From the IMG/VR virus record IMGVR_UViG_3300028914_000075, positions 5,957-69,956 of that record: a stretch of 64,000 nt of DNA. One strand, 5' to 3'. Below the pieces are notes generated by a model. It did no database searches and was not told the origin of the DNA. It saw only the letters and a list, made by a program, of their open reading frames with translations. This DNA comes from a virus (lineage: Duplodnaviria; Caudoviricetes). Shown here piece after piece: positions 10,321 to 49,822 of this stretch. Position 1 is the stretch's first letter. Each line of letters starts with the position of its first letter. Both the position numbers and the translations under genes were made by a program.

Positions 10321-11295
10321 ATGAGCAATATAATCGAACAGCAAGATTTGATGGCGACACCTGTGGACATTGAAACGTTCATAAAGGACCCGCAGTATCT
10401 AGGAAATATCGTCGAAGATGGTATTTACCCGTATTGGTTGGAGCAGTTCAAGAAAATCTATGCTGCTTCCGATGGTTCTCCGTTCTTCCTGTCTGAGTAT
10501 AGCGAAGTTCTGTTTGCGGGTGCTTTGGGAGCAGGCAGAAGTTTTGCTGCTATGGTAGGGTTCCTGTATGAACTTTACATCCTTACACTTGTAAAGGACC
10601 CGCACAAGAAATGGAATTTGTTGCCTACTACACCGATTGATTTGGCGGTCATTACTGCGGACGCAAGCAATACGCTTCTTTCCGACCGTATCTTGGACTG
10701 CATTTACGTGTCCCCGTATTTCAAGTCTATCCTGTTGCCGAATAAGGGTGACGCTCTTGAATCTGATATGTTCCCCAACCACGTGGGTCTTGCTCTTGGA
10801 GTGAATAAGCGTTCCTATCTGTTGGGACGTGCCTTTTTCGGGGCTATTGTGGATGATAGTTGCTTCCCGCAGGAAAAGCCTCTGTGCGACTTATGGATTA
10901 AGAATATATCCGAATTATACGAGTATACTTGGCGACGGGGATTTTCCAGGTTTGGTTGTGCAGGGACTACTCCGTTACGTATGTGGGTAGCCGTGGCTTC
11001 AAGTTCTCCTTTGTATGCCCTGGTTGACGAACGTAGAAAGCAAGGCTACGGTGTATACTATGTTTCCCCGTCTATATGGGAAGTCCATGCGTTCAAGGGT
11101 ATTTACTGCGGTGATACGTTCTCCGTGTTTGTCGGTTCCAATACGGAACCCCCGAAGATTGTTACGGACATAAACGACCTTGTGAAATACAAGGATAAAG
11201 TTATACAGGTTCCTGTCGAATATAGACATGATTTCGAAAAGAACATACGTGCCGCTGTTCAAGAATTGGCGGGCATTCCCGTCGCAAAGTTTTAA
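10321..11295 (+). CDS. terminase large-subunit ATPase-domain paralogue (truncated, degenerate)
   Basis: DIETFIKDPQYLG...IYPYW, Walker-A-like GALGAGRS, DP...L.P..PI and VPVEYRHDF...AVQELAG match jumbo-phage TerL N-domains; no nuclease domain. Confidence 0.7.
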   Translation: MSNIIEQQDLMATPVDIETFIKDPQYLGNIVEDGIYPYWLEQFKKIYAASDGSPFFLSEYSEVLFAGALGAGRSFAAMVGFLYELYILTLVKDPHKKWNLLPTTPIDLAVITADASNTLLSDRILDCIYVSPYFKSILLPNKGDALESDMFPNHVGLALGVNKRSYLLGRAFFGAIVDDSCFPQEKPLCDLWIKNISELYEYTWRRGFSRFGCAGTTPLRMWVAVASSSPLYALVDERRKQGYGVYYVSPSIWEVHAFKGIYCGDTFSVFVGSNTEPPKIVTDINDLVKYKDKVIQVPVEYRHDFEKNIRAAVQELAGIPVAKF

Positions 11296-11331
11296 CGAAC
11301 CGCTGTGCATTACAGCAAAGGAAACACTAAA

Positions 11332-11913
11332 ATGGCTACTAAAAAAGTTGCTCCGAAAACCGAAACCAAAGTCGCTCATAAAGTCAAGACGGTTGCCCCG
11401 AAGAAGGACGTGAAGTCTGCTACGAAGAAAGAAGTCAAGGCTGTCGCTCCGAAAAAGGCAGAATCTAAACGTAAGGCTAAAGCTGTTCCCGTCAAGACTG
11501 CTCCGAAGGATACAACTGCGTCAAGTGAAGAATATATACTTCTTGAGCATGATTTGCTCACGCAGAATTATACGATGATTATCCATGAAGCTGATTACAA
11601 GTTCAACGCTCCTCACCACTTCAAGGTCATCTCTGCACAACCCGACGCCGAAGGCGAACACAAGGGTCACAACCGTGTTATTGCAATCGTGGACTTTCAG
11701 GAAGGCCCCATCAAGGAAAATGGTGTGAATGGCGTTGCTAATGAAGATTTGCTTGGGATGGTTTTATGCCGTCTTGAGAATTTCCAAAAGTCCGAATACA
11801 AGTGCCGTGAAAATGCAATAGCCATTACGAAGATTGAAGAAGCCCTTATGTGGCTCCGCAAGAGAACTAATGCCCGTGTCAAGCGTGGCGTAGAAGGAAC
11901 ATCCAAGGTTTAA
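11332..11913 (+). CDS. tad1: Tad1-family immune-signal sponge with histone-H1-like N-terminal extension
   Basis: C-terminal DFQEGPIKENGVNGVANEDLLGMVLCRLENFQ...CRENAIAITKIEEALMWLRKRT...RGVEGT matches the Tad1 consensus. First ~60 aa are Lys/Ala/Pro-rich (KKVAPK repeats). ATG 11332 after AAAGGA. Confidence 0.85.
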   Translation: MATKKVAPKTETKVAHKVKTVAPKKDVKSATKKEVKAVAPKKAESKRKAKAVPVKTAPKDTTASSEEYILLEHDLLTQNYTMIIHEADYKFNAPHHFKVISAQPDAEGEHKGHNRVIAIVDFQEGPIKENGVNGVANEDLLGMVLCRLENFQKSEYKCRENAIAITKIEEALMWLRKRTNARVKRGVEGTSKV

Positions 11914-11928
11914 TGGAGGATTACTACA

Positions 11929-12225
11929 ATGGTTAAAAAGAAGAATATCAAGAAGACCCCCGTAAAGAGTGTTGCCGAAGTTATCGTTTCTCTTGAAGTG
12001 GAATTTGACGAAATTGCGGGCAGGGTTGAACGCTTGAATGCTGCGTTGAACTTGGGTGATGCCTTTATTCAAAAGGTAGGTGAGGAACAGTATGGGTTGC
12101 TTTGTGAGCAGTTCAATTCTATGCGGGACTACCGTGATACGCTTGCCGTTCGTCTTTCCTTGCTCCGTCGTGCGAATGCAAAGGTAATTGAAGCGGAAAT
12201 CAGTAAGAAGGAGGGTAAGGTCTAA
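11929..12225 (+). CDS. crAss001_48 / T4 Y16Q-like helical protein
   Basis: EFDEIAGRVERLNAAL...EEQYGLLCEQFNSMRDYRDTLAVRL fits the E..EL..RI..L...Q..LL..Q...M..Y...L..R family pattern; GGAGG RBS. Confidence 0.65.
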   Translation: MVKKKNIKKTPVKSVAEVIVSLEVEFDEIAGRVERLNAALNLGDAFIQKVGEEQYGLLCEQFNSMRDYRDTLAVRLSLLRRANAKVIEAEISKKEGKV

Positions 12226-12959
12226 TGGCTGATTCTACACAAGATACGCTTGCCCACAGACAGATGGTGGTTGACTATGCCACGACATTCTGCGAACGTC
12301 TTATGGATTTGGCAGAAAAGGGCAATCCTGTTTTGGCTGATTATGCTGCGGATTTCTGCGACGACATTATGAAGCGTGCAGAACGCCACGACGAGTCCAA
12401 GTTGCACGAACCCGAAAAGGAACGCTTTGATTACGTTGGCACCCATCAGCATCTTGGGAAGCACGAATACGGGTCCGATGAATACAAGAAGTCCTTGGAG
12501 TATCTTGGGCCTGCTTTACAGCATCATTACGAAGTCAATGACCATCATCCCGAACATTTCAAGAACGGTGTGGAAGGTATGAACCTTATGCAGCTTGTGG
12601 AATTGTTCTGCGATTGGGAGGCTGCTTGTCACCGCAACAAAAATGGAAACATATATCAGTCGCTTGAAAAGAACCAGGAACGCTTCAAGCTTTCTGAGGA
12701 CCTTTATGGCATATTGAAGACCACAGCCGACGAGATTGAGGGTAATACTGAATCTGTATCGGATGAAGATTTTTCTCTTGAAGGTCTTGTGTTGGAATGG
12801 CTTGATTGCCTTGCAGATTGCAAAGGCAATCTAGACGTAGACTTGTATGATTCTATAGAATTAAGCTGCGACAGTCATGGATTTTCCGACCAGGTGCATC
12901 GTATTGTGCTCAATACTGCAAATACTGCATATTGCAAAAATTTCAAACACCAAGAATAA
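12225..12959 (+). CDS. DUF5662-like HD-superfamily protein
   Basis: H...HDESK...HHYEVNDHHPEHF...M.L..LVELFCDW motif; C-terminal partial duplication. Confidence 0.75.
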   Translation: MADSTQDTLAHRQMVVDYATTFCERLMDLAEKGNPVLADYAADFCDDIMKRAERHDESKLHEPEKERFDYVGTHQHLGKHEYGSDEYKKSLEYLGPALQHHYEVNDHHPEHFKNGVEGMNLMQLVELFCDWEAACHRNKNGNIYQSLEKNQERFKLSEDLYGILKTTADEIEGNTESVSDEDFSLEGLVLEWLDCLADCKGNLDVDLYDSIELSCDSHGFSDQVHRIVLNTANTAYCKNFKHQE

Positions 12960-36159: not shown

Positions 36160-37203
36160 ATGCAAATCGCAGAAGACTATATTCCATTTAAATGTGAATT
36201 TATAGACGATATCGCCCGCGTGGACGAGTCGGCGCAGTCCGAAGTCGCAAAGAGCGGCGGTACTATCCTGGCTATCGTGAAGGGTCAGCATTTTGTACCT
36301 GGCGGCATTTCTCGTAACCATCGCAAGTATACGGAAGAATTGTGGGAAGTGGCCGGGAAGGACGAGGACGTTCAGCGTAAGCTAAAGAACGGACAGATGT
36401 TTGGTCGTATCGGCCATGAAGCCGAAATTACAGACGAAGATATTGCCGAAGGTAAGTTCTCCCACATTACCCGTAATATTGACTGGAAGACAGGCGTTGC
36501 CGAATCGGTCATCTATAATACGGATATGGGTAAGACGCTATACACTATTCTTCGTGCGGGTACGACCATGTATGTCAGTTCCCGTGCCGATGGCGATTAT
36601 GAAGGTAAGGACGAGGACGGCAACGATATCCTTGACCCGAAGACCTACAAGCTTGAACGCTTTGACTTCGTGCAGGACCCTGGGTTCCTGGACGCAAAGC
36701 CGAAGATGATTTCCGAGAGCAAGAAGAACGAAAAGATTGAAGAAACCGTGAACGAACGTGTGGCCGAAGCTTTACTTTACCTTGCTAAGGAACTTGGGGC
36801 ACCTGTCGAACTTGACGGTAGCACCTATGTTGTCGAAAGTCTTGAAAAGTCCTCCGTATCCATGACAAATTGTGACAACGATACTTCGGATACTTACAAA
36901 TTCGAGGAATTTACCGAAGTGACCGCCGACTTGAAGCAGTCCGTTGTAAAATTTGTCGAGAGCCTGCGGGAAGACTTGAAGATATCCGAGGATACCATCC
37001 ACGATTTGAAGTTCGCCAACAAGCATGGGTTGAACGAAGATTATGTGAAGGAACGCCGTCGTGCAGGGGCTACGTATGAAGCTATCGAGCATGAACAGCC
37101 TGCCGTACAGACGTTTAAGATAGTGGAAGCCAAGGCGCCTGTCCGTGAGACGGGTGGCGACAACGACGGTTCATTGATTAGCTATATTCTCGGTAATCGC
37201 TAG
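36160..37203 (+). CDS. gp21: prohead core protease (T4 gp21 / U9 family)
   Basis: SRNHRKY...W, FGRIGH, SHI, NT..GK, VSSRADG and FDFVQDPGF..A.P motifs; C-terminal extension begins SESKKNE. Confidence 0.92.
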   Translation: MQIAEDYIPFKCEFIDDIARVDESAQSEVAKSGGTILAIVKGQHFVPGGISRNHRKYTEELWEVAGKDEDVQRKLKNGQMFGRIGHEAEITDEDIAEGKFSHITRNIDWKTGVAESVIYNTDMGKTLYTILRAGTTMYVSSRADGDYEGKDEDGNDILDPKTYKLERFDFVQDPGFLDAKPKMISESKKNEKIEETVNERVAEALLYLAKELGAPVELDGSTYVVESLEKSSVSMTNCDNDTSDTYKFEEFTEVTADLKQSVVKFVESLREDLKISEDTIHDLKFANKHGLNEDYVKERRRAGATYEAIEHEQPAVQTFKIVEAKAPVRETGGDNDGSLISYILGNR

Positions 37204-37215
37204 GAGGGCTTGATT

Positions 37216-37479
37216 ATGTCAAAGATGAAAATTAAGGTACACGAATCTGAAGAAACCCTGTTGGACAGTTTTGAAATGTTAGCTAATACCAGCAGTGTGG
37301 TTAGCAGCAGTCTGTCTGAACATGGGAATTATTCGTTGTGGTCCGTTGTTCGTGATATTCAAAATGGCTCCGAGCCGTTGGACACTCCTGCTGAGGTTAA
37401 GGCACAAATATTGAAAAAGAAAGCAAATATTGAAGCAGCGTTTGAAAATTTCATTACGAAGCTGGACGCTTATTTGTAA
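37216..37479 (+). CDS. putative internal head (cargo) protein
   Basis: Leader MSKMKIKVHES; GGAGGG RBS. Confidence 0.65.
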   Translation: MSKMKIKVHESEETLLDSFEMLANTSSVVSSSLSEHGNYSLWSVVRDIQNGSEPLDTPAEVKAQILKKKANIEAAFENFITKLDAYL

Positions 37480-37494
37480 TTTTGGGGGCAGGTT

Positions 37495-38115
37495 ATGGCA
37501 TTACGTATTAACCTACACGAAAGCAAGAAGACAGAAACACAGGGTCTTGTGTTCCTGCCAGACAGTTTGAAGTCTGACATTGAATACGAACTTCCGTCGC
37601 TTTACAGGGCTAACGGACTCGCCGTTTTCAAGGGTAAGGAAGAAGTCGAACCCGATGCAGCATGGGACGTAGAAGATATGTCCTGGGACGTTGACGAAGC
37701 CACCGTGGAAGGCAACTACCTTATGGTCGCTTTTAAGGACAATCCCGGTGCCGAAAAGGTAAAGTCTGTTATGGCTGACGAATACAAGAAGGCTGTGCTG
37801 CCCGAAGCCCTTGAACTTGTCGGCTACCTTGACGTGGGTGCCCTGCGTGACGCTTTCGGTGGGCAGGTCGTTGACGCTACGAAGGGCAAGGATTATGAAC
37901 TTGGCTACTACCTTGGCGACATTAACGATATGGGCGACGTTCCCGGTGGAATTGATAATGCCTACACTGAAAACGGTGAAGTTAGCTGTATGGTAGGAGC
38001 GTTTGGATTTACAGTGGCCGAGGCGGCTAATGGCAGCGAAATCAAGGAAACGCAATCTGTGGACGAAGCCTTGAAATTGGTCGAAGAACTGTATACCAAA
38101 TATAATTTTAGATAG
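37495..38115 (+). CDS. putative internal head (cargo) protein, acidic
   Basis: Leader MALRINLHESKKTE. Confidence 0.7.
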   Translation: MALRINLHESKKTETQGLVFLPDSLKSDIEYELPSLYRANGLAVFKGKEEVEPDAAWDVEDMSWDVDEATVEGNYLMVAFKDNPGAEKVKSVMADEYKKAVLPEALELVGYLDVGALRDAFGGQVVDATKGKDYELGYYLGDINDMGDVPGGIDNAYTENGEVSCMVGAFGFTVAEAANGSEIKETQSVDEALKLVEELYTKYNFR

Positions 38116-38125
38116 AGGTAGGAAT

Positions 38126-38695
38126 ATGAAAACTTTCTCAAGAGATGATTTGATTGCAGAACTCGCTTCTAATCTTTCGGTTATGCCGGATGGTTATGGC
38201 ACGTGGAAAGTTCGCAGTTATGTGGGGTATAGCCGTAATCCTATGGCAAAGGATTCGTTTATTACACACGATGAAGCCGACAACATTGGTGAAATGGACG
38301 GCGAGAAATACAATCCGCAGGACTTTGATGATTGGTATTCTTGGCAGGATTGGAAAGCCCATGGATGGGATGAAGAACCCGACCCGAGCGATTCTGAGGT
38401 TCGCTCTTTGTTTGATGAATACTGCAACGCTACGTGGTCTGATTCTGCCAACTCGGATAACTATGAGCCAGATGAAGATAGGGTTTTGCGTCTTGCCGAG
38501 AAGATTGTGGATATGTGGGATAATGGTAATTATCCCGACGACGTGTTTGTAGGGGATAACGGCTACTATATCTTTGAGGACGAGGACGAACAGAACGTGT
38601 TTGATGATAACCTTGGCTATTACATTACTCAATTCAACAACGGGAAGTTTGACGAATTTAACACCGAAGTTGAACGAGTCCATGATGGCGAATAA
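38126..38695 (+). CDS. very acidic protein (possible DNA mimic)
   Basis: About 48 D/E versus about 14 K/R in 189 aa (hand count); aromatic-rich. Confidence 0.6.
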   Translation: MKTFSRDDLIAELASNLSVMPDGYGTWKVRSYVGYSRNPMAKDSFITHDEADNIGEMDGEKYNPQDFDDWYSWQDWKAHGWDEEPDPSDSEVRSLFDEYCNATWSDSANSDNYEPDEDRVLRLAEKIVDMWDNGNYPDDVFVGDNGYYIFEDEDEQNVFDDNLGYYITQFNNGKFDEFNTEVERVHDGE

Positions 38696-38714
38696 TAATT
38701 TGAGAGGTTGCATT

Positions 38715-39590
38715 ATGGCATCTATGCATAAGAAGATTGAAGCGTTCAAGAAGAACGAAAGCGATGGTTCCGTATGGGACGTATTCGATGACCTCGTGGA
38801 TGGGTTGAAGGACTACGGCCTGTCACAGCAGGAAGCAGAAAAGGCTGTAGAGGATTCCGGCATTTCTTTGAGTTCTGTTAAGGCCGATGCCGAGGTGAAG
38901 GGGTATCCTCGTGCTATTATGGGTGCTCTTGATGCAGTTTATACTGTTTATATGGATAAACAGGAAGAATCTAAGAAGAACGAGGCCGATAGCGTTAGTG
39001 CGGTTGATTTCTGGAATAATTATATCAAGGACCGCACCATAGAAATTCTTGAATCCTACGATGTAAATTCCGCACAGGGCGGTGATGCATGGGAAAATAT
39101 CGGTGACGGTGTTGAAGAACGCGAGACCCGTTGGGATATAGGTGCTCTTCAGAAATCGTGGGAAACTACGTTGGGCCGGGTAGTCGGACAGGGTGTAGAT
39201 GATGAAACCGTGAAGAAGGAATATGACCGTGCTTATGAAGCTGGTATTGAAAAATGGCGCTCCGAAAATGGAGACGATGCCCCGTTGGATACCGAAGAGT
39301 TCTATGACTTTATTGACAGCTATACGACTGACGACAGTTGCACGTTCTTTGCAGAAGTCCGCGTGGTCCTTGACGACCGTGGTCATCTTATGGCTTCGCT
39401 TGGGCGCAACTTTGACTATTCCTACGGAGCGGATAACAAGTTCGTATCCGATATGGATGTCAGCATGTCTTTGGCGGATGGTCAGTTTACGAAGGAGAAC
39501 GCTGACAAGTTCCTTGACGCTTTTGAGGATTGCTTGACATCGTATTCGTTCTCGTACGGTTACAAGGATTATACAATAGAAGCCGTGTAG
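38715..39590 (+). CDS. two-module cargo protein
   Basis: ATG 38715 after GAGAGG; leader MASMHKKIEAFKKNES; internal linker EESKKNEA (38967). Confidence 0.7.
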   Translation: MASMHKKIEAFKKNESDGSVWDVFDDLVDGLKDYGLSQQEAEKAVEDSGISLSSVKADAEVKGYPRAIMGALDAVYTVYMDKQEESKKNEADSVSAVDFWNNYIKDRTIEILESYDVNSAQGGDAWENIGDGVEERETRWDIGALQKSWETTLGRVVGQGVDDETVKKEYDRAYEAGIEKWRSENGDDAPLDTEEFYDFIDSYTTDDSCTFFAEVRVVLDDRGHLMASLGRNFDYSYGADNKFVSDMDVSMSLADGQFTKENADKFLDAFEDCLTSYSFSYGYKDYTIEAV

Positions 39591-39610
39591 TTCGGCAAAG
39601 GTAGGAAAAT

Positions 39611-40723
39611 ATGACCTATAAATGCTCTATGCAGAAGAAGATTGAAAGCGTTACGAAACGAAATGAATGGTATCGGGGCGAACATGCCGATATATTTGAC
39701 GATATCCGTAGGGACACGTCTAACTCATGGTACATAGGTGCTACACGTATGATGCCGAGAAAATCGGGTGCCGTTACAGGGGCTATTGAAGATGACGATT
39801 ATCGTGATAGATTTGTCATAAACTTTACAGTGGCTTGTGACAATTTCGATTTCGGCCAAAATTCCGAAGAGTTGAAGGAGTTGGCGGATACTTGCTTGTC
39901 TATGTCCATTACAGACCGCAGTCCCCGTATCAAGGGTGATATGCTTGTTACGGCTGTGCCACTAGGTAATCCTGTAGCTAAGGGAAACTCCTGGAATTAC
40001 GATGTCGAATTGAAATATAACGACACGCAAAAAGGAGAAACTAAAATGACGTGTTCAATGCAGAAGAAAAAGGAAAGCTTTAGGAACACCTCCGAAAAGC
40101 GTACCGTCACCAAGAGTTACGATGTATATACCTACGACGAACTTTCCGGCGAAGCCAAGGAAAAAGTGAAAAAGATGTTCCTTGATTGGCGTAGTGACGA
40201 CGGAATGTTCAAAGAGGATTGCGTGAGTGCCCTTAACGAATTGTTCCCTAATTCCGATTTGGACATTGAATATCAACTGTCCTATACGCAGGGTGACGGA
40301 TTCAACACATCGGGTACCCTAAAAGTGGATGACCTTCTTAATGTTGACTTGTCCTATTATCCTCTCAATAAGTCGGGCATCAATCCGCTTTCGGATAAGA
40401 AAGCTATCAAGGCTGCATGTGAGGATGCAGGTATTTCAGAAATTAAGCTGCCTGTAAACCGTAGGTATGGGTATTCTATGGCTGACAGCATAGAACTGGA
40501 AACGGACAGCGGCTATTCTGTGGCAGATTTGGAAAGCTTGCCCGAGTCTGAAGTAGCACTATTGAATGAACTTGAAGACTTTGCACGCAGCGTATTCAAG
40601 CATATCAATGGCACGTTCAAAGACAACGGTTATGATTATTTCTACGAGATGTCGGATGAAGAAGCATCTGAACAAGCCGACGCAAATGGTTATGAGTTCA
40701 CCGAAGATGGTGAGATTGCATAA
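39611..40723 (+). CDS. fused two-cassette cargo protein
   Basis: Leader MTYKCSMQKKIES; second leader MTCSMQKKKES at ATG 40046 with its own AAGGAG RBS. The second module (YTYDELSGEAKEK...QGDG...ANGYEFTEDG) is a widespread phage domain. Confidence 0.7.
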   Translation: MTYKCSMQKKIESVTKRNEWYRGEHADIFDDIRRDTSNSWYIGATRMMPRKSGAVTGAIEDDDYRDRFVINFTVACDNFDFGQNSEELKELADTCLSMSITDRSPRIKGDMLVTAVPLGNPVAKGNSWNYDVELKYNDTQKGETKMTCSMQKKKESFRNTSEKRTVTKSYDVYTYDELSGEAKEKVKKMFLDWRSDDGMFKEDCVSALNELFPNSDLDIEYQLSYTQGDGFNTSGTLKVDDLLNVDLSYYPLNKSGINPLSDKKAIKAACEDAGISEIKLPVNRRYGYSMADSIELETDSGYSVADLESLPESEVALLNELEDFARSVFKHINGTFKDNGYDYFYEMSDEEASEQADANGYEFTEDGEIA

Positions 40724-40735
40724 GGAGGTACTATT

Positions 40736-41137
40736 ATGAAAAAGTGTTCGATGCTGAAGAAGATTGAAAGTCTTAAAAAGAAGTCCGAGGCTGCTTCGGA
40801 TATCATTCGTGTGATTGCTGAAAACGTTATGCTTACCGTCAATGACGTGTATGTAGACGAACATGGAGGTTCCTTCTCGGTTGAAATTCCCGAAGAAGGC
40901 AAGTCCTACGATTTGCTTTATATGAAGGAAATGATTCGTGGCATGTGCGAAGATTGCACGGGTTACGCTGACTATTCCCGTGACGGCAGTGAACTTCTCA
41001 TAAAAGTTATGGCAGGCGAAATGGACGATAATGGCGAATGGACGGGTGACTATTACACGGCCTATTCGTTCCGTTGCACCGCACGTATTATGAAATCTTC
41101 CCTTGAAGGAATCATAGACTTCCTAGACGAAGAATAG
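40736..41137 (+). CDS. putative cargo protein
   Basis: Leader MKKCSMLKKIESLKKKSEA; AAGGAGG RBS. Confidence 0.7.
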   Translation: MKKCSMLKKIESLKKKSEAASDIIRVIAENVMLTVNDVYVDEHGGSFSVEIPEEGKSYDLLYMKEMIRGMCEDCTGYADYSRDGSELLIKVMAGEMDDNGEWTGDYYTAYSFRCTARIMKSSLEGIIDFLDEE

Positions 41138-41163
41138 TCCCGAATATGCCGAAATTATTAAGA

Positions 41164-41190
41164 GTGCCCCGATTGCTCGGGGCATTTTCT
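41164..41190 (+). terminator. rho-independent terminator
   Basis: TGCCCCGA-ttgc-TCGGGGCA followed by TTTTCT. Confidence 0.8.
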
Positions 41191-41480
41191 GTATGTCCAT
41201 TCTCTTTCACATAAATTAAATATAACAGGTTATCTAACTTATATAACAAATTACCTATAAAATATCACTAGGTATCTTGTTATATTTGACATTTTCTGAC
41301 ATTTTTATGCTGTCATGGTCGAAATGCCCGTGACTTTTTATTATATTCTCCAATTAAGAGGGAGGGCATTTCCCTGCCAATACTTGTATGACAAACATGC
41401 AGATTCCCTTATAGGAGGGCGGCTTTCGAAGAGACGCCTGCACTTACAAACAAACTAACCCTATCAAGGAGACCATTACT

Positions 41481-41969
41481 ATGGTTAATTTCCGTAAGAA
41501 ACTCCGCGAAGACGATTCCATCGTTGAAATTGGTGATGTCAAGCTTGACGCCAAGGAAACCGAAGTCGTGTTCGCCGATGAAGAAAAGGACATCCAGGTT
41601 GTCGTTTCCCCCGACCCGGAAAACGAAAACTCCGTGACTGTCGCAGTCCTCACCAACTCCAAGGAAGACGTGGAAGAAGAAGAAGTTCTTGGTTCCGCTT
41701 CTGTCGAAGGCAGTGAGGGCGAAGGCGCTGAAGAAGCTCGCAAGGCTGCCCGCCGTGAAGCTTTCCGCAAGCGTCTCGAATCCCGCGCCAAGGCTAAGAA
41801 TGCACCCGCCCGTAACGAGGCTCGTGTGTCCGAGTTCCGTAAGCGCCTTGAAGCACGCCGTGCCGAAAAGAAGGCAGAATCCAATAAGGGTGCTGCTTTT
41901 GCCGACCGTAAGAAGTCCATCGCTGAAGCACGTGCGAAGTTCCGTTCCAAAATTGGCAAGAAAGCCTAA
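41481..41969 (+). CDS. prohead scaffold/core-like protein
   Basis: Immediately upstream of the MCP with the same optimised codon usage; acidic N-half, basic C-half with repeated FRKRLE(S/A)R. Confidence 0.6.
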   Translation: MVNFRKKLREDDSIVEIGDVKLDAKETEVVFADEEKDIQVVVSPDPENENSVTVAVLTNSKEDVEEEEVLGSASVEGSEGEGAEEARKAARREAFRKRLESRAKAKNAPARNEARVSEFRKRLEARRAEKKAESNKGAAFADRKKSIAEARAKFRSKIGKKA

Positions 41970-41986
41970 CCCAAGGAGGAGTCAAC

Positions 41987-43627
41987 ATGAAGACTTCCGT
42001 TGAAGAAATGTCTAACCAGAAGTACAACCGCCTCGTGGAAAGCTACGAAGCGCGTTACAGCAAGCAGTTCGAAGCTCTTGCTAAGTCCCCGTCGTTCAAG
42101 GGCACCCTGTCCAAGAATGCCATGTATAACCTCGGTATGCAGATGGACAACTACAAGCGTTACGAGTCCTACGTGAACGAAAACTCCTCGGCTTCCAGCC
42201 TCGGTGTTCTCCCGCGTGTCGCTCTTGACCTTATCTCTGCTACCTATGCCCTTTCCATTGCTCCGCAGTTGGCAAGCGTGCAGACCCTCGAAGAATCCCA
42301 GGGTCTTATCTACTTCAAGAAGACCTTCACCCACGGCTATCCGCTGACGGCTCAGAACGGCCTCCCGACTCTCCCGGAAGACCGTTGGATGGATGCCGAT
42401 GGCAAGCTTGACGGTGAATCCACCTTTGCAGGCGCTTGGAAGAAGTGGTACGATTCTCGTCCGCGTCCGGCTACCGATGGCACCACGCCTCTCAGCCCGG
42501 ATACCCTCGCAGCCAAGAACTTTGACGCTATCACTTTCAACGCTCTCAAGGGCTGGCAGGCTTCCCCGACTAGCTACATGAGCGAACGTCAGTTCGTCAT
42601 CGCTGCCGATGGTTCTGCCCGTATCAAGTACGGTATCGGCAATCTCCGTTGGAACGTTCCGATTAACGTCCGTCTCGTTGACGCTAGCGGCAATGTTGAA
42701 GATTCCGTCGGTGTCTGCGCTGGTCCGGGTCAGTTGCCGACCTTCTACGGCAAGGTTGCCGTGACCGCTGCACAGGACGGTGCGGATATCGTCCTCACCA
42801 TCCCGCAGGGATACCAGGGTGGCGTGACCTATGACGTGGACTTCGAAAAGGCCCCGGATGTCCCGGCCATCGAATACAGCCTTGACAGCAAGATTGTCTC
42901 CGCTGAAATCATCGGCTTGAAGGAAAACCTTGGCACGTTCAAGTCCTTCCAGTTCAATAAGCGTTTCGGCAAGGCTGCTTCCGATGAAGTTCTCGCCGAC
43001 CTCACAGGCCACATGGCCATGGCTGAATCCGAAAAGATTCTCAACGCTTACAGAATGAGCGCTAACAAGTGGAAGCCGATTACTTGGAACCTCAACAAGA
43101 CTGCGGGTATCAGCGAGTTCGAACACCGTCAGTCCTTCCTCTATGCTATCCAGGCTGCTTCTGCTGCTATCGGTAGCCGTGCAGGTAAAGGTCATGCCAA
43201 CAAGCTCGTTGCTGGCTATGTCGCTGCACAGTACATTGCATCCCTCCCTGGATTCCGTCTTGCACCGCAGACGAACCTTGTCGGTCCGCACGTGTACGGT
43301 ACCCTCGAAAACGAAGGTATCACGGTTATCCGTAGCAATGCCGTCGTCGCCCCGAACGAAGTTATCGCCGCTTACAGCAGCGACAACAGCCCGTTCGAAG
43401 CCCCGGTTGTGTGTGCAACGTATATGCCTGTCTTCTTGACGGACACCATGCCTGTTGCAGACAATCCGTTCCAGACTCAGCGTGCTATCGCTTCTTGGAA
43501 GGCTATCGAACCTGTCGTTTCCGAATTTGTCCAGCGTATCATCATTACGAAGGATGCGGAAGCCCCGGCAGATGTCAATGTCTTCCTTACTACCACCCCG
43601 AACGGTGGCAGTGGAAGCAATGGCTAA
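41987..43627 (+). CDS. gp23: major capsid protein (T4 gp23-like)
   Basis: ALSIAPQLASVQTL...GLIYF, EIIGLKENL, ANKLVAG, GPHVYGTL, APVVCATYMPV...NPFQTQRA motifs; strong RBS; highly biased codons. Confidence 0.93.
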   Translation: MKTSVEEMSNQKYNRLVESYEARYSKQFEALAKSPSFKGTLSKNAMYNLGMQMDNYKRYESYVNENSSASSLGVLPRVALDLISATYALSIAPQLASVQTLEESQGLIYFKKTFTHGYPLTAQNGLPTLPEDRWMDADGKLDGESTFAGAWKKWYDSRPRPATDGTTPLSPDTLAAKNFDAITFNALKGWQASPTSYMSERQFVIAADGSARIKYGIGNLRWNVPINVRLVDASGNVEDSVGVCAGPGQLPTFYGKVAVTAAQDGADIVLTIPQGYQGGVTYDVDFEKAPDVPAIEYSLDSKIVSAEIIGLKENLGTFKSFQFNKRFGKAASDEVLADLTGHMAMAESEKILNAYRMSANKWKPITWNLNKTAGISEFEHRQSFLYAIQAASAAIGSRAGKGHANKLVAGYVAAQYIASLPGFRLAPQTNLVGPHVYGTLENEGITVIRSNAVVAPNEVIAAYSSDNSPFEAPVVCATYMPVFLTDTMPVADNPFQTQRAIASWKAIEPVVSEFVQRIIITKDAEAPADVNVFLTTTPNGGSGSNG

Positions 43628-43654
43628 TTGTTGCCTGTAGGCTAAGACCTATGA

Positions 43655-43688
43655 GTGCCCCCGTCGCAAGGCGGGAGCACTTTTTTTG
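43655..43688 (+). terminator. rho-independent terminator after MCP
   Basis: GTGC-CC-CCGTC-GCAA-GGCGG-GA-GCAC followed by T8. Confidence 0.85.
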
Positions 43689-43758
43689 TACGTGCATGTA
43701 ATTGTTCCGTACATTTTTTATTATTTTTATTTCTGTATTAACCGTAAGGAGCGCTTCT

Positions 43759-43893
43759 ATGTCCGAAGATGAAAAGCCCGAATCCTATTCCTATAACGCC
43801 TATATCTTGGCTATGTATGCCGACGCTGAACTGCGTGACGAGTCATTGTGGACAGGCAACTTTACGGGCGATGTCCTCCCGTATGTCGTATAA
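43759..43893 (+). CDS. 44-aa acidic peptide
   Basis: AAGGAG RBS; MSEDEKPESYSYNAYILAMYADAELRDESLWTG. Confidence 0.55.
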   Translation: MSEDEKPESYSYNAYILAMYADAELRDESLWTGNFTGDVLPYVV

Positions 43894-43920
43894 CAAGGTT
43901 TTTCAACAAAAGGTATAGGT

Positions 43921-45873
43921 ATGGCTATGAACAAATTAAATTCACCCGATGGGGATAAAGGAAATACTATGAGAAACGAACGTAGAAGCACTGACGATTA
44001 CTTGCAGGAAGTCTATGACAGCCTCGTGGCTGTATGGGACAAGAACAAGTTCGATATGTCCAAGGGTTATGACGATGAATACGAATGCGAGTGCATCAAG
44101 ATTACTTACAAGGACAATGATGGAGTCTATGCGAAGATTTATGTGGACGACTATGAGGGAAAGCACCCTGTAGCCTTTGATGTCGTGTATCGCTATCCTG
44201 GCGACAAGGGAGTAGGTATCAAGGGTACTTATGAATTTCAGAGTACGGACTTTGACGAAACTGCTCCAGAGATTTTCGATTACTTTGACGAAGTGGCCAA
44301 GAAGGCAAGTGAAAGTCTAGAACCGCATATAGACTTGGACAAGCGTGGCGATGCGGAATTGTGCGAGGACGACCCGATTAAGCTTCGTAGGGATATCAAT
44401 TCCCGTGGATATTTTGTGGACGACAAGGGCTTCTACAATGTCTACGTGGGCGCATCCTTTAAGGGGAAGTTCGCATCTGTGGAAGACGCTGCCGAAGTTG
44501 GTTATACCCTGGTGGAGTCCAAGAAGTGTGAAGCTACCGATGAACAAGTCAGCAGAGCACAGGCTTTGTTGGACTCTATGGACCCCGACCAGTCATTCTC
44601 TTATTACGATGAATACGGTGATTATATTAAAGGGGTTCCGCATAGAACTATTTTGTTTGAAGCTCCTACAGAGGGTGGAAAGTTATTGACCTTCGGTGTT
44701 GAGTTTATTGACAATACATTGAGCAGCATTTATGTTTGCGATGAAGATGGCGAATGGTTTGACGAAGGTACTGATTTTGAGGATATTAAGAAAGACCCCG
44801 AAGGTTGGTACAATGCTGTGATGCGTAAGGTTCCCGAAGATAAGAAGACGGAAGGTCTTGGTACGAATATAAAGAATGCACAACCGAAGGTCTATCTTGT
44901 AAGTGAAGTTGCGGAAAAAGATTTGTATGATAGCTACGATGATATTCTTGACGTGCTTGAAGGTACACAGAGCTTCGTTTCAGTGGAAACGGCAGAAGGT
45001 CATGAAGAATTACCTTTAGGGTATGACCGTGACAAGAACGTTCTGCTTATTTATGATGATGACGCCTTGACGGATGACGTTGTAGATACGGCTAAGATGC
45101 TTGTGATGAATTTTATTACAGGACAATCTGCTGTCAGTGAAAAGCCGCTTACAGATGATTACGTATGTATCGTGGATGGTATGTATTATACGACTACTTA
45201 TTATGTGCCAGAATCCAAGAAGTCCGAAGATACAAAAGTAGGCAAGTTCACAATTATGCCGAAAGATACATCTAGGAAACAAGCGGGTATTAGGGCATAC
45301 CAAACTCGTTTGGGTGAAATGGGCTTTAAGTCTAATCTTCACAACAATGGCGATTATATACACGATTATGTCAAGGAAATCGGCAAGATTCCTGGTGCTA
45401 CTGTTTATGTTGGAACGATTGACAATTTCCAAAAGAATACCCAAGAATATCAGTATGAAGCCGAACTTTATATGGAAAACGAAAAAGGTATTCGGAGTAA
45501 CATTGAATATATGCCGTTTGCCATAACCGATATTTCGGATGGAATGCAGCGTAAGATGTATTTCAATCGTCTTAATGCCCTTATTAAAAAAGGCACGGAC
45601 TTTGTGAACAATTATGAATCTAGTGAATCCTGCAAGAAGTCCGAAAGTCTCACTTTGAAGCAGAAGGAACTCAAGGACATGGTGCGTTACGGTGAAGCCG
45701 AAGACATCACTACCATTTCTAATGAAGAAGCTAAAGAACTACGCAAAAAGGGTGTTGAAACCGTGGGAATCAGCCGTGGTACTTACGGTATGAACGGTGC
45801 ACTGCTCCGTGACAAGGATGGCAATAAGTATGTCATCACCGCCCGCAGTTCCAATCTTTTTTACTTTGTATAA
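43921..45873 (+). CDS. multi-module polyprotein-like cargo (about 6 modules)
   Basis: Unrelated domains separated by KASES, ESKKCEA (44515), EDKKTEG (44836), ESKKSED (45211), ESCKKSES (45625); alternative start ATG 43969. Confidence 0.75.
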   Translation: MAMNKLNSPDGDKGNTMRNERRSTDDYLQEVYDSLVAVWDKNKFDMSKGYDDEYECECIKITYKDNDGVYAKIYVDDYEGKHPVAFDVVYRYPGDKGVGIKGTYEFQSTDFDETAPEIFDYFDEVAKKASESLEPHIDLDKRGDAELCEDDPIKLRRDINSRGYFVDDKGFYNVYVGASFKGKFASVEDAAEVGYTLVESKKCEATDEQVSRAQALLDSMDPDQSFSYYDEYGDYIKGVPHRTILFEAPTEGGKLLTFGVEFIDNTLSSIYVCDEDGEWFDEGTDFEDIKKDPEGWYNAVMRKVPEDKKTEGLGTNIKNAQPKVYLVSEVAEKDLYDSYDDILDVLEGTQSFVSVETAEGHEELPLGYDRDKNVLLIYDDDALTDDVVDTAKMLVMNFITGQSAVSEKPLTDDYVCIVDGMYYTTTYYVPESKKSEDTKVGKFTIMPKDTSRKQAGIRAYQTRLGEMGFKSNLHNNGDYIHDYVKEIGKIPGATVYVGTIDNFQKNTQEYQYEAELYMENEKGIRSNIEYMPFAITDISDGMQRKMYFNRLNALIKKGTDFVNNYESSESCKKSESLTLKQKELKDMVRYGEAEDITTISNEEAKELRKKGVETVGISRGTYGMNGALLRDKDGNKYVITARSSNLFYFV

Positions 45874-45888
45874 AGAGGAAATACCTAT

Positions 45889-47313
45889 ATGAACAAGAGT
45901 TCCATGCAGAAACGAATCGAATCATTCAAGCAGTCCGAAGCAGCTGGAAACAGCGTTTCCAACTTCAGAAGGGATAGCCTCGGTGTTTCCTTCGACGGTA
46001 AGTTCGGCACTATGCGCAAGGCCGAAGATTGGGTAATCTACCCGACGAAGGCCGATGACAAGACTTTTGACATACAGAGCGACAAGCGCTGGGCAACCAT
46101 CGACAAGGATACAGGAGAGATGTGGCTTTCCGCCCCGCATAGCTTTGCCAACAATTACGTTCTTGCCATGGACAAGCGTTCCGGGAAGGCACAGCACATT
46201 ACTTTGGAACCCGAAGTTCTGAAGCAGTTCCTTGACGCTATTGGCGACCGTCGTATTATGGACCATAGCCTTGACAAGATTGCCGTTAGTTCGGACGTGA
46301 CCGATGCGGAACTTCGTGGGGAATCCGTGAAGAACGAAGCCCGCTACTTCGCAACTGCGGATTGGTGGAAACGCTTCCAGGACGACTACAACGATATGTA
46401 TGACGGCATGGGCTTCGAGTTCAAGTTTGACGGACCGAACAATAAGGCGGATATCTATTCCAACGGGAAGATGCTCGGCTCGATTTCATGGAAGGGTAAG
46501 TATAAGCTGCTCGATGAAGACGGGAAGTGGCTCTACAGGAGCAATGCTCCCGAATTTAGGGATTTCATCTATAACTTGGTCAAGTATCATGGTGACGACA
46601 TGAACAAGCACTACAATGGTACTGTAGCCAAGCGTAGCTGGGAAGACTATGATGCGGATTCTGCCTATTCTAAAGTCAGCGGACCTGTGGCGGATGCCTA
46701 CAAGCTGCTTGACGGCTATTTTTGCGATGACAAGGGTGCCTTGACAAAGGATGCACTTGATAAGGTATATCTGACTTATAGGAACGAACGTGACCTTTAC
46801 GACCGTAGTAAGATGAAATCCGTGCAGTCGCATTCTCTTGCGTGGGATGCGTTACTTCGCGAAATCAATGCTACCCTCGAATGGGACGACGAATATCCGC
46901 ATGCTACTAAGCTGTCTCCTATGCAAGTGAAGACTTGGTTTAAGCTCAAGAATCGTGATTTCAAGGAAGACCTCAAGCCGTTGGTTGGCGCTATAGATGC
47001 TTATCGTAGCAAGGGAGAATCCAAGAAGTCCGAAGCAGCAGAGTCCGATTTTATTAAGGATTTCCGTGCCTATATGGCCACAATGGTTGGTGAATCCTAC
47101 GACGAACAAGACCTTATCGGTTGGGGATGGGAATGGAAGTCTGAAGAAGACGAATACGTTGATGGCGAAAAGACTTGTGTTGCAACTTATACTATGACAG
47201 ACGACGGTGTTCCGTACAAGTTGGTTGTAAAGTGGAATAGTTTTATGGAAACTATTAACGGATACGATTTGTGGCAGGAACAGCCTAGTGAATCCAAGAA
47301 GTCCGAAGCCTAA
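45889..47313 (+). CDS. multi-module polyprotein-like cargo (3 modules)
   Basis: Leader MNKSSMQKRIESFKQSEA; linkers ESVKNEA (46321), ESKKSEA (47017), terminal ESKKSEA (47290). Confidence 0.8.
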   Translation: MNKSSMQKRIESFKQSEAAGNSVSNFRRDSLGVSFDGKFGTMRKAEDWVIYPTKADDKTFDIQSDKRWATIDKDTGEMWLSAPHSFANNYVLAMDKRSGKAQHITLEPEVLKQFLDAIGDRRIMDHSLDKIAVSSDVTDAELRGESVKNEARYFATADWWKRFQDDYNDMYDGMGFEFKFDGPNNKADIYSNGKMLGSISWKGKYKLLDEDGKWLYRSNAPEFRDFIYNLVKYHGDDMNKHYNGTVAKRSWEDYDADSAYSKVSGPVADAYKLLDGYFCDDKGALTKDALDKVYLTYRNERDLYDRSKMKSVQSHSLAWDALLREINATLEWDDEYPHATKLSPMQVKTWFKLKNRDFKEDLKPLVGAIDAYRSKGESKKSEAAESDFIKDFRAYMATMVGESYDEQDLIGWGWEWKSEEDEYVDGEKTCVATYTMTDDGVPYKLVVKWNSFMETINGYDLWQEQPSESKKSEA

Positions 47314-47325
47314 GGCGACAAGGAA

Positions 47326-47646
47326 GTGTTCACCATTGACCTGTATCGCATTGATGCCGACGGGGAAGAAGAAGGCTTGGACGACATGGCCGCATCCAAA
47401 ATCTACTACTCCGATGAAGACGCTATCAAGGATGCACAGGGCATTGTCGATGGCTACAAGGACGATGCTGGTGTAGTGTTTGCGGTAGTCATGGGCGGTG
47501 AAGTTGAAAAGCCTAGCGGAGACATTGTAGGCAACCCTATTGATATCTATTGGGCATCGTCTAGCGACAAGGCTACGACTTCCGATTTCCGTGAAAAGGC
47601 TAGATATGCAGCGTATGACAATGCCATGGATTATTACGCAAAATAA
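47326..47646 (+). CDS. acidic module in frame with the upstream polyprotein
   Basis: Same frame as 45889-47313, separated by one TAA; weak independent start. Confidence 0.55.
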   Translation: MFTIDLYRIDADGEEEGLDDMAASKIYYSDEDAIKDAQGIVDGYKDDAGVVFAVVMGGEVEKPSGDIVGNPIDIYWASSSDKATTSDFREKARYAAYDNAMDYYAK

Positions 47647-47667
47647 GTTTCAAACAGGAGAAAACAG

Positions 47668-48363
47668 ATGTCTGACAAAAAGTTTAATAACAAGAAGTCC
47701 GAAGGCGTTGAAGCCTTGAAAGATAAGGTTGTGTCCGATGGAACCTTGAAGCCACAGGACCTTATTCCGAAATTCCTTGATACCTTGAAATATGACGAGG
47801 AAGCCCATTCCAAGTTCTTGAAGGACTTTCCCGAAATCCTTGAAATCCAGTCATGGGATGAATTGGATGAAGAAACGCAGTCGATGCTCGTGGACGAGCT
47901 TATTGACGCTCTCAATGGTATTGCTCCCGAAGGTTACTTCTTCGGTGCGTCCGAGGGTGACGGGGCTAGCTTTGGTTTTTGGTCGGTAGGTTCCGACGAA
48001 TCCAAGAAGCCAGAAGCCAAGAAATGCGAAGCTTCCAACACAATCAAGATGAACATCGACTACAACACGTTCATGCGTCTTTGCGACAGTGCTGCTTATT
48101 TGAGCGGTGACAAGGATTATCATGATGCCTTGTGGAATTATTACTTTGATGGCGGTGAGATTACTGTACGTGCTGACGAGTTCTTCGATAACTTGTTCCA
48201 ATATACAGATTGGAAGGATGCCGAAGAAATCTATGACGAAGTGTTGGACGACGAGTACAAGGATGACAGCAAGTTCAAGGAAGAATGCATACAGGCAGCC
48301 ATTGACGCAGGGGACCTTGATGCATACCAGCAAGACAACGGCATGTACTTGATTGTTTATTAA
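47668..48363 (+). CDS. two-module cargo protein
   Basis: Leader MSDKKFNNKKSEG; module 1 is the ALNGIAPEGYFFGASEGDGASFGFW phage domain; linker ESKKPEAKKCEA (47998). Confidence 0.75.
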   Translation: MSDKKFNNKKSEGVEALKDKVVSDGTLKPQDLIPKFLDTLKYDEEAHSKFLKDFPEILEIQSWDELDEETQSMLVDELIDALNGIAPEGYFFGASEGDGASFGFWSVGSDESKKPEAKKCEASNTIKMNIDYNTFMRLCDSAAYLSGDKDYHDALWNYYFDGGEITVRADEFFDNLFQYTDWKDAEEIYDEVLDDEYKDDSKFKEECIQAAIDAGDLDAYQQDNGMYLIVY

Positions 48364-48384
48364 ATACAGTAAGGAACAGAGATT

Positions 48385-49101
48385 ATGCTTGAACCCGATG
48401 ACCAGAAAGTTTATTTTACGTCCGATGACCTGTCGGAACTTTATCCCGAAGCCGAAGACCCGATGGATGCTGCTCTTAATGTCCTTGAAGGCGAGCAGTC
48501 TTTTATCGTAGTGGATGGCAAGGAATTGCCTTTGGGCTACGATGCTGAAAAGGACGCTATCATTATTGAAGACTACGAGGCATCCCCCGAAATTGTCCGA
48601 AAGGCTCGCCAACTTATGCAGTTGTTCGTGGATAACGAACTGTTCACTACCCGTGATATTGAAGGGCAGAATGGGTATATGCCTGATGGCGACTATCCGT
48701 ATTCCGTGAATGTGGCAGACGGACAGTCGTATAGCGTTGTGTCCTATTATCCATCCGAAGAAATGATTTACCCGACTGAAGTTAGTATTTGGTCGGGCAG
48801 TGGCTATACCACGAATGACATCTATGTGGACGTGGATGCCGACAATGCCCAGGGTGCTCTTGAAGTAGCCGTGGCTGTTGCGGACAAGCGTGGGTGGACA
48901 GCTATTTTGTTAGACCCTGCCGAAGTTGAACAGGATATGGCAAATGACGGTCATTACAATATGGAAACGGGCGAGGGCGATAGAGTTTTTGATGAAACTT
49001 ATCTGTATGTGGACGCAACTATGGAAGGTGCTTCACAGCCGTATTATGTGTATGCAGAGAACCTGAGTGTTCGCCCGAATGAGTATTTGAAAATTAAATA
49101 G
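48385..49101 (+). CDS. two-module acidic protein
   Basis: N-module is paralogous to a module of 43921-45873 (VLEG.QSF...ELPLGYD); C-module ends YVDATMEGASQPYYV. Confidence 0.7.
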   Translation: MLEPDDQKVYFTSDDLSELYPEAEDPMDAALNVLEGEQSFIVVDGKELPLGYDAEKDAIIIEDYEASPEIVRKARQLMQLFVDNELFTTRDIEGQNGYMPDGDYPYSVNVADGQSYSVVSYYPSEEMIYPTEVSIWSGSGYTTNDIYVDVDADNAQGALEVAVAVADKRGWTAILLDPAEVEQDMANDGHYNMETGEGDRVFDETYLYVDATMEGASQPYYVYAENLSVRPNEYLKIK

Positions 49102-49123
49102 GAATAATACAGGAGAATTTACG

Positions 49124-49600
49124 ATGACTTTGAAAATCAATACCCGTAAGTTTGAAGGCAAAGTATCCAGTGCTACGCAGCGTGTACAGTTCCGTAGTAA
49201 TGGCGTTCATGAAAGTTACAAGGATTATGACGCCATAACCAATTTCCTTGAAGCCATACTTGACGGTGCCAATACTATGTTTACACGGGTCTATACTTCC
49301 GATAATGGCCCCGGTGAGATTTGTATAGAAATCGAAGGTTGGGATTCTACGGATGGTGACTGTATTATGTCTATCGTGTTTGACGAACAGGAAAGTTTTG
49401 AAGACACTATAGGTGAAATTGCTAATGAACTTGAAGACTATGCAAGTGATTTTGACCCAGAAGAAGAAGCAAACAAGTATATGAATGCTAATGTTCCGGG
49501 AACACCGTCTTTGCGTAAGCTGTTAAAGGCTATGGATGAACGAAAGGCGGACATGGTTGCTTTGGCGGATGCCGTTAGGGCAGCGTATAACAAGATGTAA
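49124..49600 (+). CDS. putative cargo protein
   Basis: Leader MTLKINTRKFEG...VHES. Confidence 0.7.
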   Translation: MTLKINTRKFEGKVSSATQRVQFRSNGVHESYKDYDAITNFLEAILDGANTMFTRVYTSDNGPGEICIEIEGWDSTDGDCIMSIVFDEQESFEDTIGEIANELEDYASDFDPEEEANKYMNANVPGTPSLRKLLKAMDERKADMVALADAVRAAYNKM

Positions 49601-49822
49601 TTAACGATAACTGCAAGAAATCCCATCTATCTTTAGTGGGTGAGATGAATTGCCAGAAAGAATAAGGTATATTATGTACAACAATACGGTTGGAACGACC
49701 GGAATTTATGCCGAGGGAGATATGGTATGCAATAGCGTAGCAGCTCCGGAATCCTGCAAGCCTATGATGTGTGAAACCCACACGTCTTCAGCGTGTGGGG
49801 AGTTCATAAACAGGGGAAGAGT

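Follow-up and report, generated by a model that had tools for sequence, protein, structure and literature searches.

The closest described relatives of the protein analysed here are CmTad1 and CbTad1 (PDB 8KBB-8KBH, 7UAV/7UAW/8SMD), and a longer Tad1 is carried by the jumbo phage phiKZ. The phiKZ protein, gp184 (230 aa), is a minor capsid protein located on the capsid's inner face (PMC11297242), and has been described as a Tad1 whose N-terminus is wedged into the capsid, while the head protease releases its C-terminus, which is injected (bioRxiv 10.1101/2025.11.23.690004; PMC13282480). It provides a precedent for an N-terminal extension giving Tad1 a delivery function, and makes outdated the statement in a preliminary description of the present locus that characterised Tad1 proteins are single domains of about 125 aa. 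No paper on a Lys-rich or disordered Tad1 tail came up in literature searches.

Protein segments that are Lys/Ala/Pro-rich, with far more Lys than Arg, free of aromatics, SPKK-like and disordered, occur in the C-terminal domain of histone H1, the C-tail of mycobacterial HupB, Pseudomonas AlgP and chlamydial Hc1. Charge-based binding of nucleic acid is a property of the C-terminal domain of H1 and also of the Lys-rich N-tails of Dps, which are displayed on an oligomer. The T4 proteins IPI-IPIII are basic, capsid-targeted and injected as anti-defence cargo.

A Tad1 gene with an N-terminal extension

The source record, IMGVR_UViG_3300028914_000075, is a virus contig of 69,956 bp from IMG/VR, estimated to be 32% complete; the 64 kb of it that were analysed are referred to as the window. 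The gene under study and its parts are as follows.

11332..11913, + strand: ORF of the tailed Tad1 (P0001), 193 codons, ATG at 11332 and TAA at 11911-11913
11319..11322, + strand: SD-like AGGA, 9 nt 5′ of the ATG, read from the sequence
11332..11535, + strand: tail and short linker DTTASSEEY, residues 1-68, supported by composition, charge, AF2, dN/dS and tree
11458..11475, + strand: AESKRK, residues 43-48, a partial match to the head-module linker ES[KR][KR]xE
11536..11910, + strand: Tad1 domain, residues 69-193, an antiparallel β-sheet followed by two C-terminal helices
11740..11886, + strand: helical hairpin, residues 137-185, in which the ligand and hexamer residues lie

SD-like motifs lie 5′ of 30 of the 47 genes of the window, compared with 13% at random positions. 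In the relatives with MATKK-type loci the tailed Tad1 always begins with MATKK, and the SD motif is conserved too. Upstream of this start the flanking sequence diverges among the relatives and a stop is soon reached, the frame opening five codons upstream of it in L008. The sole downstream in-frame ATG, M81, lies inside the conserved Tad1 core, and a start there is disfavoured because it would remove the conserved core residues L71-T77. Differences in tail length between relatives are all in frame. By the Nei-Gojobori method, dN/dS between relatives at dS of 0.2-1.4 is 0.17-0.38 for the tail, a value that is alignment-sensitive in a low-complexity segment, and mostly 0.05-0.11 for the Tad1 domain (0.20 in one low-divergence pair). 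Given the conserved start and SD motif, the in-frame indels and dN/dS below 1, the tail is translated, and the concern that the true start might lie downstream of it, raised in the preliminary description, can be set aside. Scans for sigma-70 promoters and terminators, and for the T4 late-promoter motif TATAAATA, did not reveal a promoter that could be attributed to the Tad1 gene.

The Tad1 domain and its ligand sites

In phmmer searches of PDB sequences, residues 69-193 aligned with residues 11-132 of the apo-CmTad1 chain (8kbb, E 4.6e-35), covering CmTad1 end to end at about 52% identity, and CbTad1 (7uav) was matched at E 4.5e-15. The protein also matched phrog_2428 (E 7.6e-43), and scored 26.9 bits against the Pfam hairpin family PF24729, just below the cutoff of 27 bits. 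These profile and full-length alignments bear out the earlier assignment of residues ~70-193 to Tad1. An AF2 model, built with 48 homologues, has strands at residues 68-70, 81-86, 95-101 and 116-122, and helices at 137-152 and 159-185. Searched with Foldseek, the model returned only Tad1 entries at E ≤ 1e-3, headed by CmTad1 and CbTad1, with TM values of 0.42-0.45 that are low because the use of a monomer model and the presence of the tail inflate the rmsd.

The ligand and interface residues of Tad1 were taken from Li et al. (bioRxiv 10.1101/2023.11.15.567273, section 6) and mapped by HMMER alignments, using chain and paper offsets that reproduce 11 of 11 letters in CmTad1 and 6 of 6 in CbTad1. 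The four pocket residues are those defined by mutagenesis. The correspondences are:

gcADPR/cyclic-dinucleotide pocket: CbTad1 F82, N92, R109, R113 to F151, N161, R178, R182; 4/4 identical
Cyclic-trinucleotide site: CmTad1 R88, T95 to R159, T166; 2/2 identical
Cyclic-trinucleotide contacts: CmTad1 C87, A91, M92 to C158, A162, I163; 2/3 identical, Met replaced by Ile
Hexamer (trimer of dimers) interface: CmTad1 K96, Q98, E99, M102, W103, K106 to K167, E169, E170, M173, W174, K177; 5/6 identical

The single change at the hexamer interface is from Gln (Q98 of CmTad1) to Glu (E169). R178 and R182 do not vary across the 48 homologues, and conservation is 90% or higher at F151, N161 and T166. The pocket, on whose conservation the preliminary description had made its reading of the protein depend, is therefore intact. 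As the pocket, the trinucleotide site and nearly all of the interface residues are kept, the sponge part looks fully functional, and is predicted to bind its ligands.

One subgroup of Lys-tailed proteins (P0039, P0041 and P0044) has KCKENAEAIKCL where others have KCRENAxAITKI, so that the equivalents of both R159 and T166 are replaced. This suggests that binding of cA3 may be lost or altered in that subgroup.

Composition of the tail

Residues 1-63 contain 19 Lys, 12 Ala, nine Val, eight Thr, five Pro and a single Arg, lack aromatics, and have a net charge of +15 and a pI of 10.4, in agreement with the Lys/Ala/Pro low-complexity N-terminus first reported for this protein. The ratio of Lys to Arg is 19:1, compared with 10:7 in the Tad1 domain. 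Four APK[KTD] motifs are present, which we take to resemble the minor-groove motifs of SPKK type. The AF2 model shows no secondary structure before residue 68, and the block means of pLDDT are 38-59. The preliminary description had called the tail histone-H1-like. This is true of its composition, but no winged-helix Linker_histone match was found in Pfam or NCBIfam, and no structure is predicted for it.

Neither Pfam nor NCBIfam gave a DNA-binding family for the tail, and searches of PADLOC and NCBIfam with the protein gave no match. A match of the tail to DUF6465 (E 0.12) is compositional. An Atlas search with the tail alone as query yielded no usable feature match, and its structural neighbours (HU, MARCKS-like and others) were discarded as meaningless, given a TM of at most 0.53 on a disordered segment. 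No DNA-level tandem repeat was detected by TRF in the tail of the window itself.

Genome context

Near-complete relatives of the virus are 213-216 kb in length. Matching DNA is found in bovine gut metagenomes, and cultured phages gave no match at the DNA level. The contig holding one relative was assigned to the bin of a Clostridia MAG from buffalo caecum, and this, along with the use of SD motifs, hints weakly at a Firmicutes host.

Nine loci of the MATKK type, and L049 (MVKKNETKK type), have a common gene order: exonuclease, g9072, an optional TerL-like gene, Tad1, g11929, an optional DUF5662 gene and g13102. IMG/VR contained no loci for the MVKKNETKK or MATKKVEVKK tail types, and L049 came from a metagenome scan. 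Since Tad1 occupies the same syntenic site at every locus that was fetched, all of these tailed loci point to one lineage of ruminant-gut jumbo phages of ~215 kb, within which the tail has diversified in place. The neighbours of Tad1 are replication-type genes or genes of unknown function, with no head genes among them.

The 324-aa gene immediately upstream (10321-11295) is at most a terminase-like candidate, as searches of PHROG, Pfam and PDB sequences returned nothing for it. It occupies a variable slot beside Tad1: its identity is 90-91% in some relatives and only about 45% in others, and L005 and L043 lack it. Directly 3′ of Tad1 in all relatives examined is a 98-aa gene (11929-12225; phrog_774 / phrog_3934, unknown function) with a short Lys-rich N-terminus, MVKKKNIKK. 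The next gene (12225-12959) encodes DUF5662 (PF18907, E 2.4e-29), and is present in most relatives but missing from L043. The relative G001 is organised in two arms: a minus-strand arm (about 0-99 kb) of mostly small genes, and a plus-strand arm (99-215 kb) of replication and structural genes, in which Tad1 lies at 124 kb.

Distribution and evolution of the tail

When 1.84 billion representatives were searched exhaustively, 3,961 proteins matched the Tad1 domain. Among the best 150 of these, about 65 have 15 or more residues added at the N-terminus. Most of the additions in that set are acidic or folded domains, two are weakly basic, and only this cluster has one that is Lys/Ala/Pro-rich.

Other additions recur. 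A sister Tad1 clade (P0046-P0057, P0125, P0159, P0260; L059:1467-2153) has a folded N-terminal domain of ~90 aa (PVTIE...) without a Pfam family, which may act as a second module, binding a ligand or serving as a sponge. A different domain of ~65 aa, with the pattern ...AKPMTLGDYN.YRGW...GY...SWSPK..FE..Y, recurs at the N-terminus of P0129, P0190, P0229 and P0253; a Pfam search with one of them (P0129) gave no match. Tail-less homologues are found in Herelleviridae (L047:3983-4363 in Bacillus phage Bcp1, and L048:3974-4360 in vB_BanH_McCartney), where they are annotated as 'structural protein', yet lie in the replication module, between its SSB-like and its RecA-like genes.

The preliminary description had proposed a survey of how often Tad1 homologues carry such tails. 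Among the best 120 homologues, 45 protein clusters (P0001-P0045) have Lys-rich tails, 17-79 aa in length, with 27-41% Lys and a net charge of +7 to +19. They fall into several types that can barely be aligned between subgroups, beginning MATKKVAPKTETK..., MVKKNETKKPAAVKK..., MATKKVEVKKVDVKK... or MSKQTTNKKS.... In a tree of the Tad1 domain alone, built from the same best 120 homologues, the tail-bearers form one clade (SH-aLRT 96) that requires one change of state. Within this clade of 45 clusters the tail has never been lost, and has in no case fallen below a net charge of +7, at dS of up to about 1.4. Full-length relatives with 71-90% identity comprise the proteins P0002-P0014 and the loci L001-L008 and L043.

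In a 219-kb relative, the tail is encoded in part by a 24-nt tandem repeat (L054:7041-7140; four copies, 73% matches) specifying APKKEVKx. This accounts for changes in tail length, and is direct evidence for growth of the tail by repeat expansion.

The other ORFs of the window contain no such Lys-rich stretch. In the relative G001 (215,686 bp, 99% complete, ~350 ORFs), Tad1 alone passed a filter for Lys/Ala/Pro/Val/Thr low complexity, and was also the sole match when the tail was used as query. Being unique among the ORFs of the window and the ~350 of G001, the tail is far from a chance composition; it is specific to Tad1 and not a genome-wide habit. The absence of any loss, the maintained charge, the preference for Lys over Arg, the lack of aromatics and the uniqueness within the genome together argue that purifying selection is acting on the composition of the tail and not on its sequence. 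The tail is a selected, polycationic and disordered segment of single origin.

Possible roles of the tail

If the domain is a working sponge, then it would form a hexamer that sequesters gcADPR of Thoeris, the cyclic dinucleotides of CBASS, and cyclic trinucleotides. Such a hexamer would display six disordered tails with about +90 charge in all, and these could bind polyanions non-specifically by charge, most likely DNA or RNA, so that the sponge would stay at high concentration on nucleic acid, be it the phage genome or a site of replication or transcription. This is the reading preferred here, with a probability of about 0.5: a functional Tad1 hexamer whose polycationic tails bind polyanions, most likely nucleic acid, and thereby localise or concentrate the sponge. 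Binding by charge is suggested by the selection on composition, the use of Lys over Arg, the lack of aromatics, the multivalent display and the restriction of such tails to Tad1. We infer hexamer formation, ligand binding and every binding activity of the tail. The roles put forward in the preliminary description, which are tethering to DNA, concentration in a condensate and co-packaging, are conjectural in the same way. Both the length and the charge of the tail range over more than a factor of two, which would also be compatible with a loosely constrained spacer or a solubility tag.

The last point leads to the alternative that survives best, although it is rather unlikely: that the tail has no binding partner and is a tolerated expansion by repeat slippage, serving at most as an entropic bristle, a solubility aid or an enhancer of translation start. 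The range of lengths (17-79 aa) and the poor alignability between subgroups fit this view, as do the tandem-repeat origin visible in L054, a dN/dS three to six times that of the domain, and the tolerance of the Tad1 N-terminus for unrelated additions seen in about 65 of the best 150 representatives. Against it, the tail has not disappeared or fallen below a net charge of +7 in any member of the 45-cluster clade at dS of up to about 1.4, and has no counterpart in other proteins of the 215.7-kb relative; the extreme bias of Lys over Arg and the missing aromatics likewise point to selection on composition.

A second alternative, which appears unlikely, is that the tail is a device for loading Tad1 into the virion, either by riding on packaged DNA, as the basic internal proteins of T4 do, or as a capsid-targeting leader that is trimmed by a prohead protease of T4 type. 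A ready-made sponge would then enter the cell with the genome, in functional convergence with gp184, itself an N-extended Tad1 on the inner capsid that is reported to be freed by the head protease and injected. The window does encode a head module of T4 type, with a recurrent motif, ES[KR][KR]xE (mostly ESKKxE), of which there are eight copies, all in head-module ORFs within 36160-51643. Six of these fit GARTCNAARAARNNNGAR, where 0.01 would be expected by chance, and one immediately follows the prohead-protease-like core in the ORF at 36160-37203. Outside the head module, the only credible ORF with ES[KR][KR] is the Tad1 tail, where KKAESKRK can be compared with RKAESRKNE of ORF 49793. The position of the gene, in the plus-strand arm beside replication and structural genes and not in the arm of small genes, would also suit loading.

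The AESKRK sequence pointed out in the preliminary description is thus present at residues 43-48, but its significance is doubtful. It lacks the second Glu of ES[KR][KR]xE, its codons are unlike those of the head-module copies, and it occurs in just three of the 45 tail-bearing clusters (P0001-P0003), with TAPKIMAK at that position in close relatives. Being so restricted, it cannot be the reason that the tail is retained, and is at most a recent addition in this strain. Taking ES[KR][KR]xE to be a protease site is moreover conjectural. The start of the tail matches neither of the leader classes of head-module ORFs, and the immediate neighbours of the gene are of replication type or unknown, rather than head genes. 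The extension of gp184 is acidic and has no similarity to the tail.

Since AESKRK is not conserved, co-packaging with the genome, as proposed in the preliminary description, is possible but weakly supported. Its DNA-riding form, in which the tails would load Tad1 hexamers onto phage DNA, to be packaged and then ejected with the genome before any Thoeris or CBASS signal is made, is more doubtful still. If true, it would be a second route to an injected sponge, mediated by charge where gp184 uses a capsid-anchored propeptide released by protease, and would suggest that jumbo phages repeatedly need to have a sponge delivered at time zero.

That the tail is an untranslated leader or an artefact of ORF calling, with the protein beginning downstream, is scarcely credible: a GTG at residue 27 is all that favours it, against the conserved MATKK and SD motif, a frame kept open through in-frame indels, dN/dS below 1 and the loss of L71-T77 that the next ATG (M81) would entail.

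Sponges must outrun signal production, so that where and when they are present counts as much as their affinity. The injection of Tad1 by phiKZ is one answer to this, and the ruminant-gut lineage keeps a different add-on. Should the tail hold the sponge on nucleic acid, or on the packaged genome, it would represent a new way to localise or deliver an anti-defence protein, and tails of 17-79 residues on near-identical domains would offer a clean natural system in which to examine how that function is tuned by charge and length. If instead the tail is inert, the protein is merely a decorated Tad1.

Comparison with known systems

The protein has features in common with IPI-IPIII of T4, in being a small basic anti-defence protein of a phage with a head protease of T4 type. 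It differs from them in having no recognisable capsid-targeting leader, and in that its single candidate Glu-Ser site is not conserved.

The tail is similar in composition to histone H1 and the bacterial Lys-rich tails, without homology to them and without the winged-helix globular domain of H1. It is also placed differently, at the N-terminus, and on a small-molecule sponge instead of a nucleoid protein.

As in phiKZ gp184, a Tad1 domain of a jumbo phage forms the C-terminus of a longer protein. The helical hairpin matches gp184 (PDB 8Y6V, chain I) at E 1.4e-7 by phmmer, and BLASTP aligned only residues 112-190 with gp184 148-226 (79 residues, 33% identity), finding no homology between the tail and the N-terminal extension of gp184. 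That extension is about 140 aa in length and acidic (rich in Asp, Glu and Ser), with part of it folded against the capsid shell, whereas the tail described here is basic.

The closest correspondence is with CmTad1 and CbTad1, which have the same fold of a β-sheet and two helices, and share with this protein the pocket, the trinucleotide site and nearly all of the hexamer interface. Relative to CmTad1, two substitutions at the mapped sites (Q98 to E169, and M92 to I163) are accompanied by the addition of a 68-residue, disordered and polycationic N-terminal tail. What is new at this locus is therefore not a new system, but a canonical Tad1 that carries a polycationic, disordered tail throughout a lineage.
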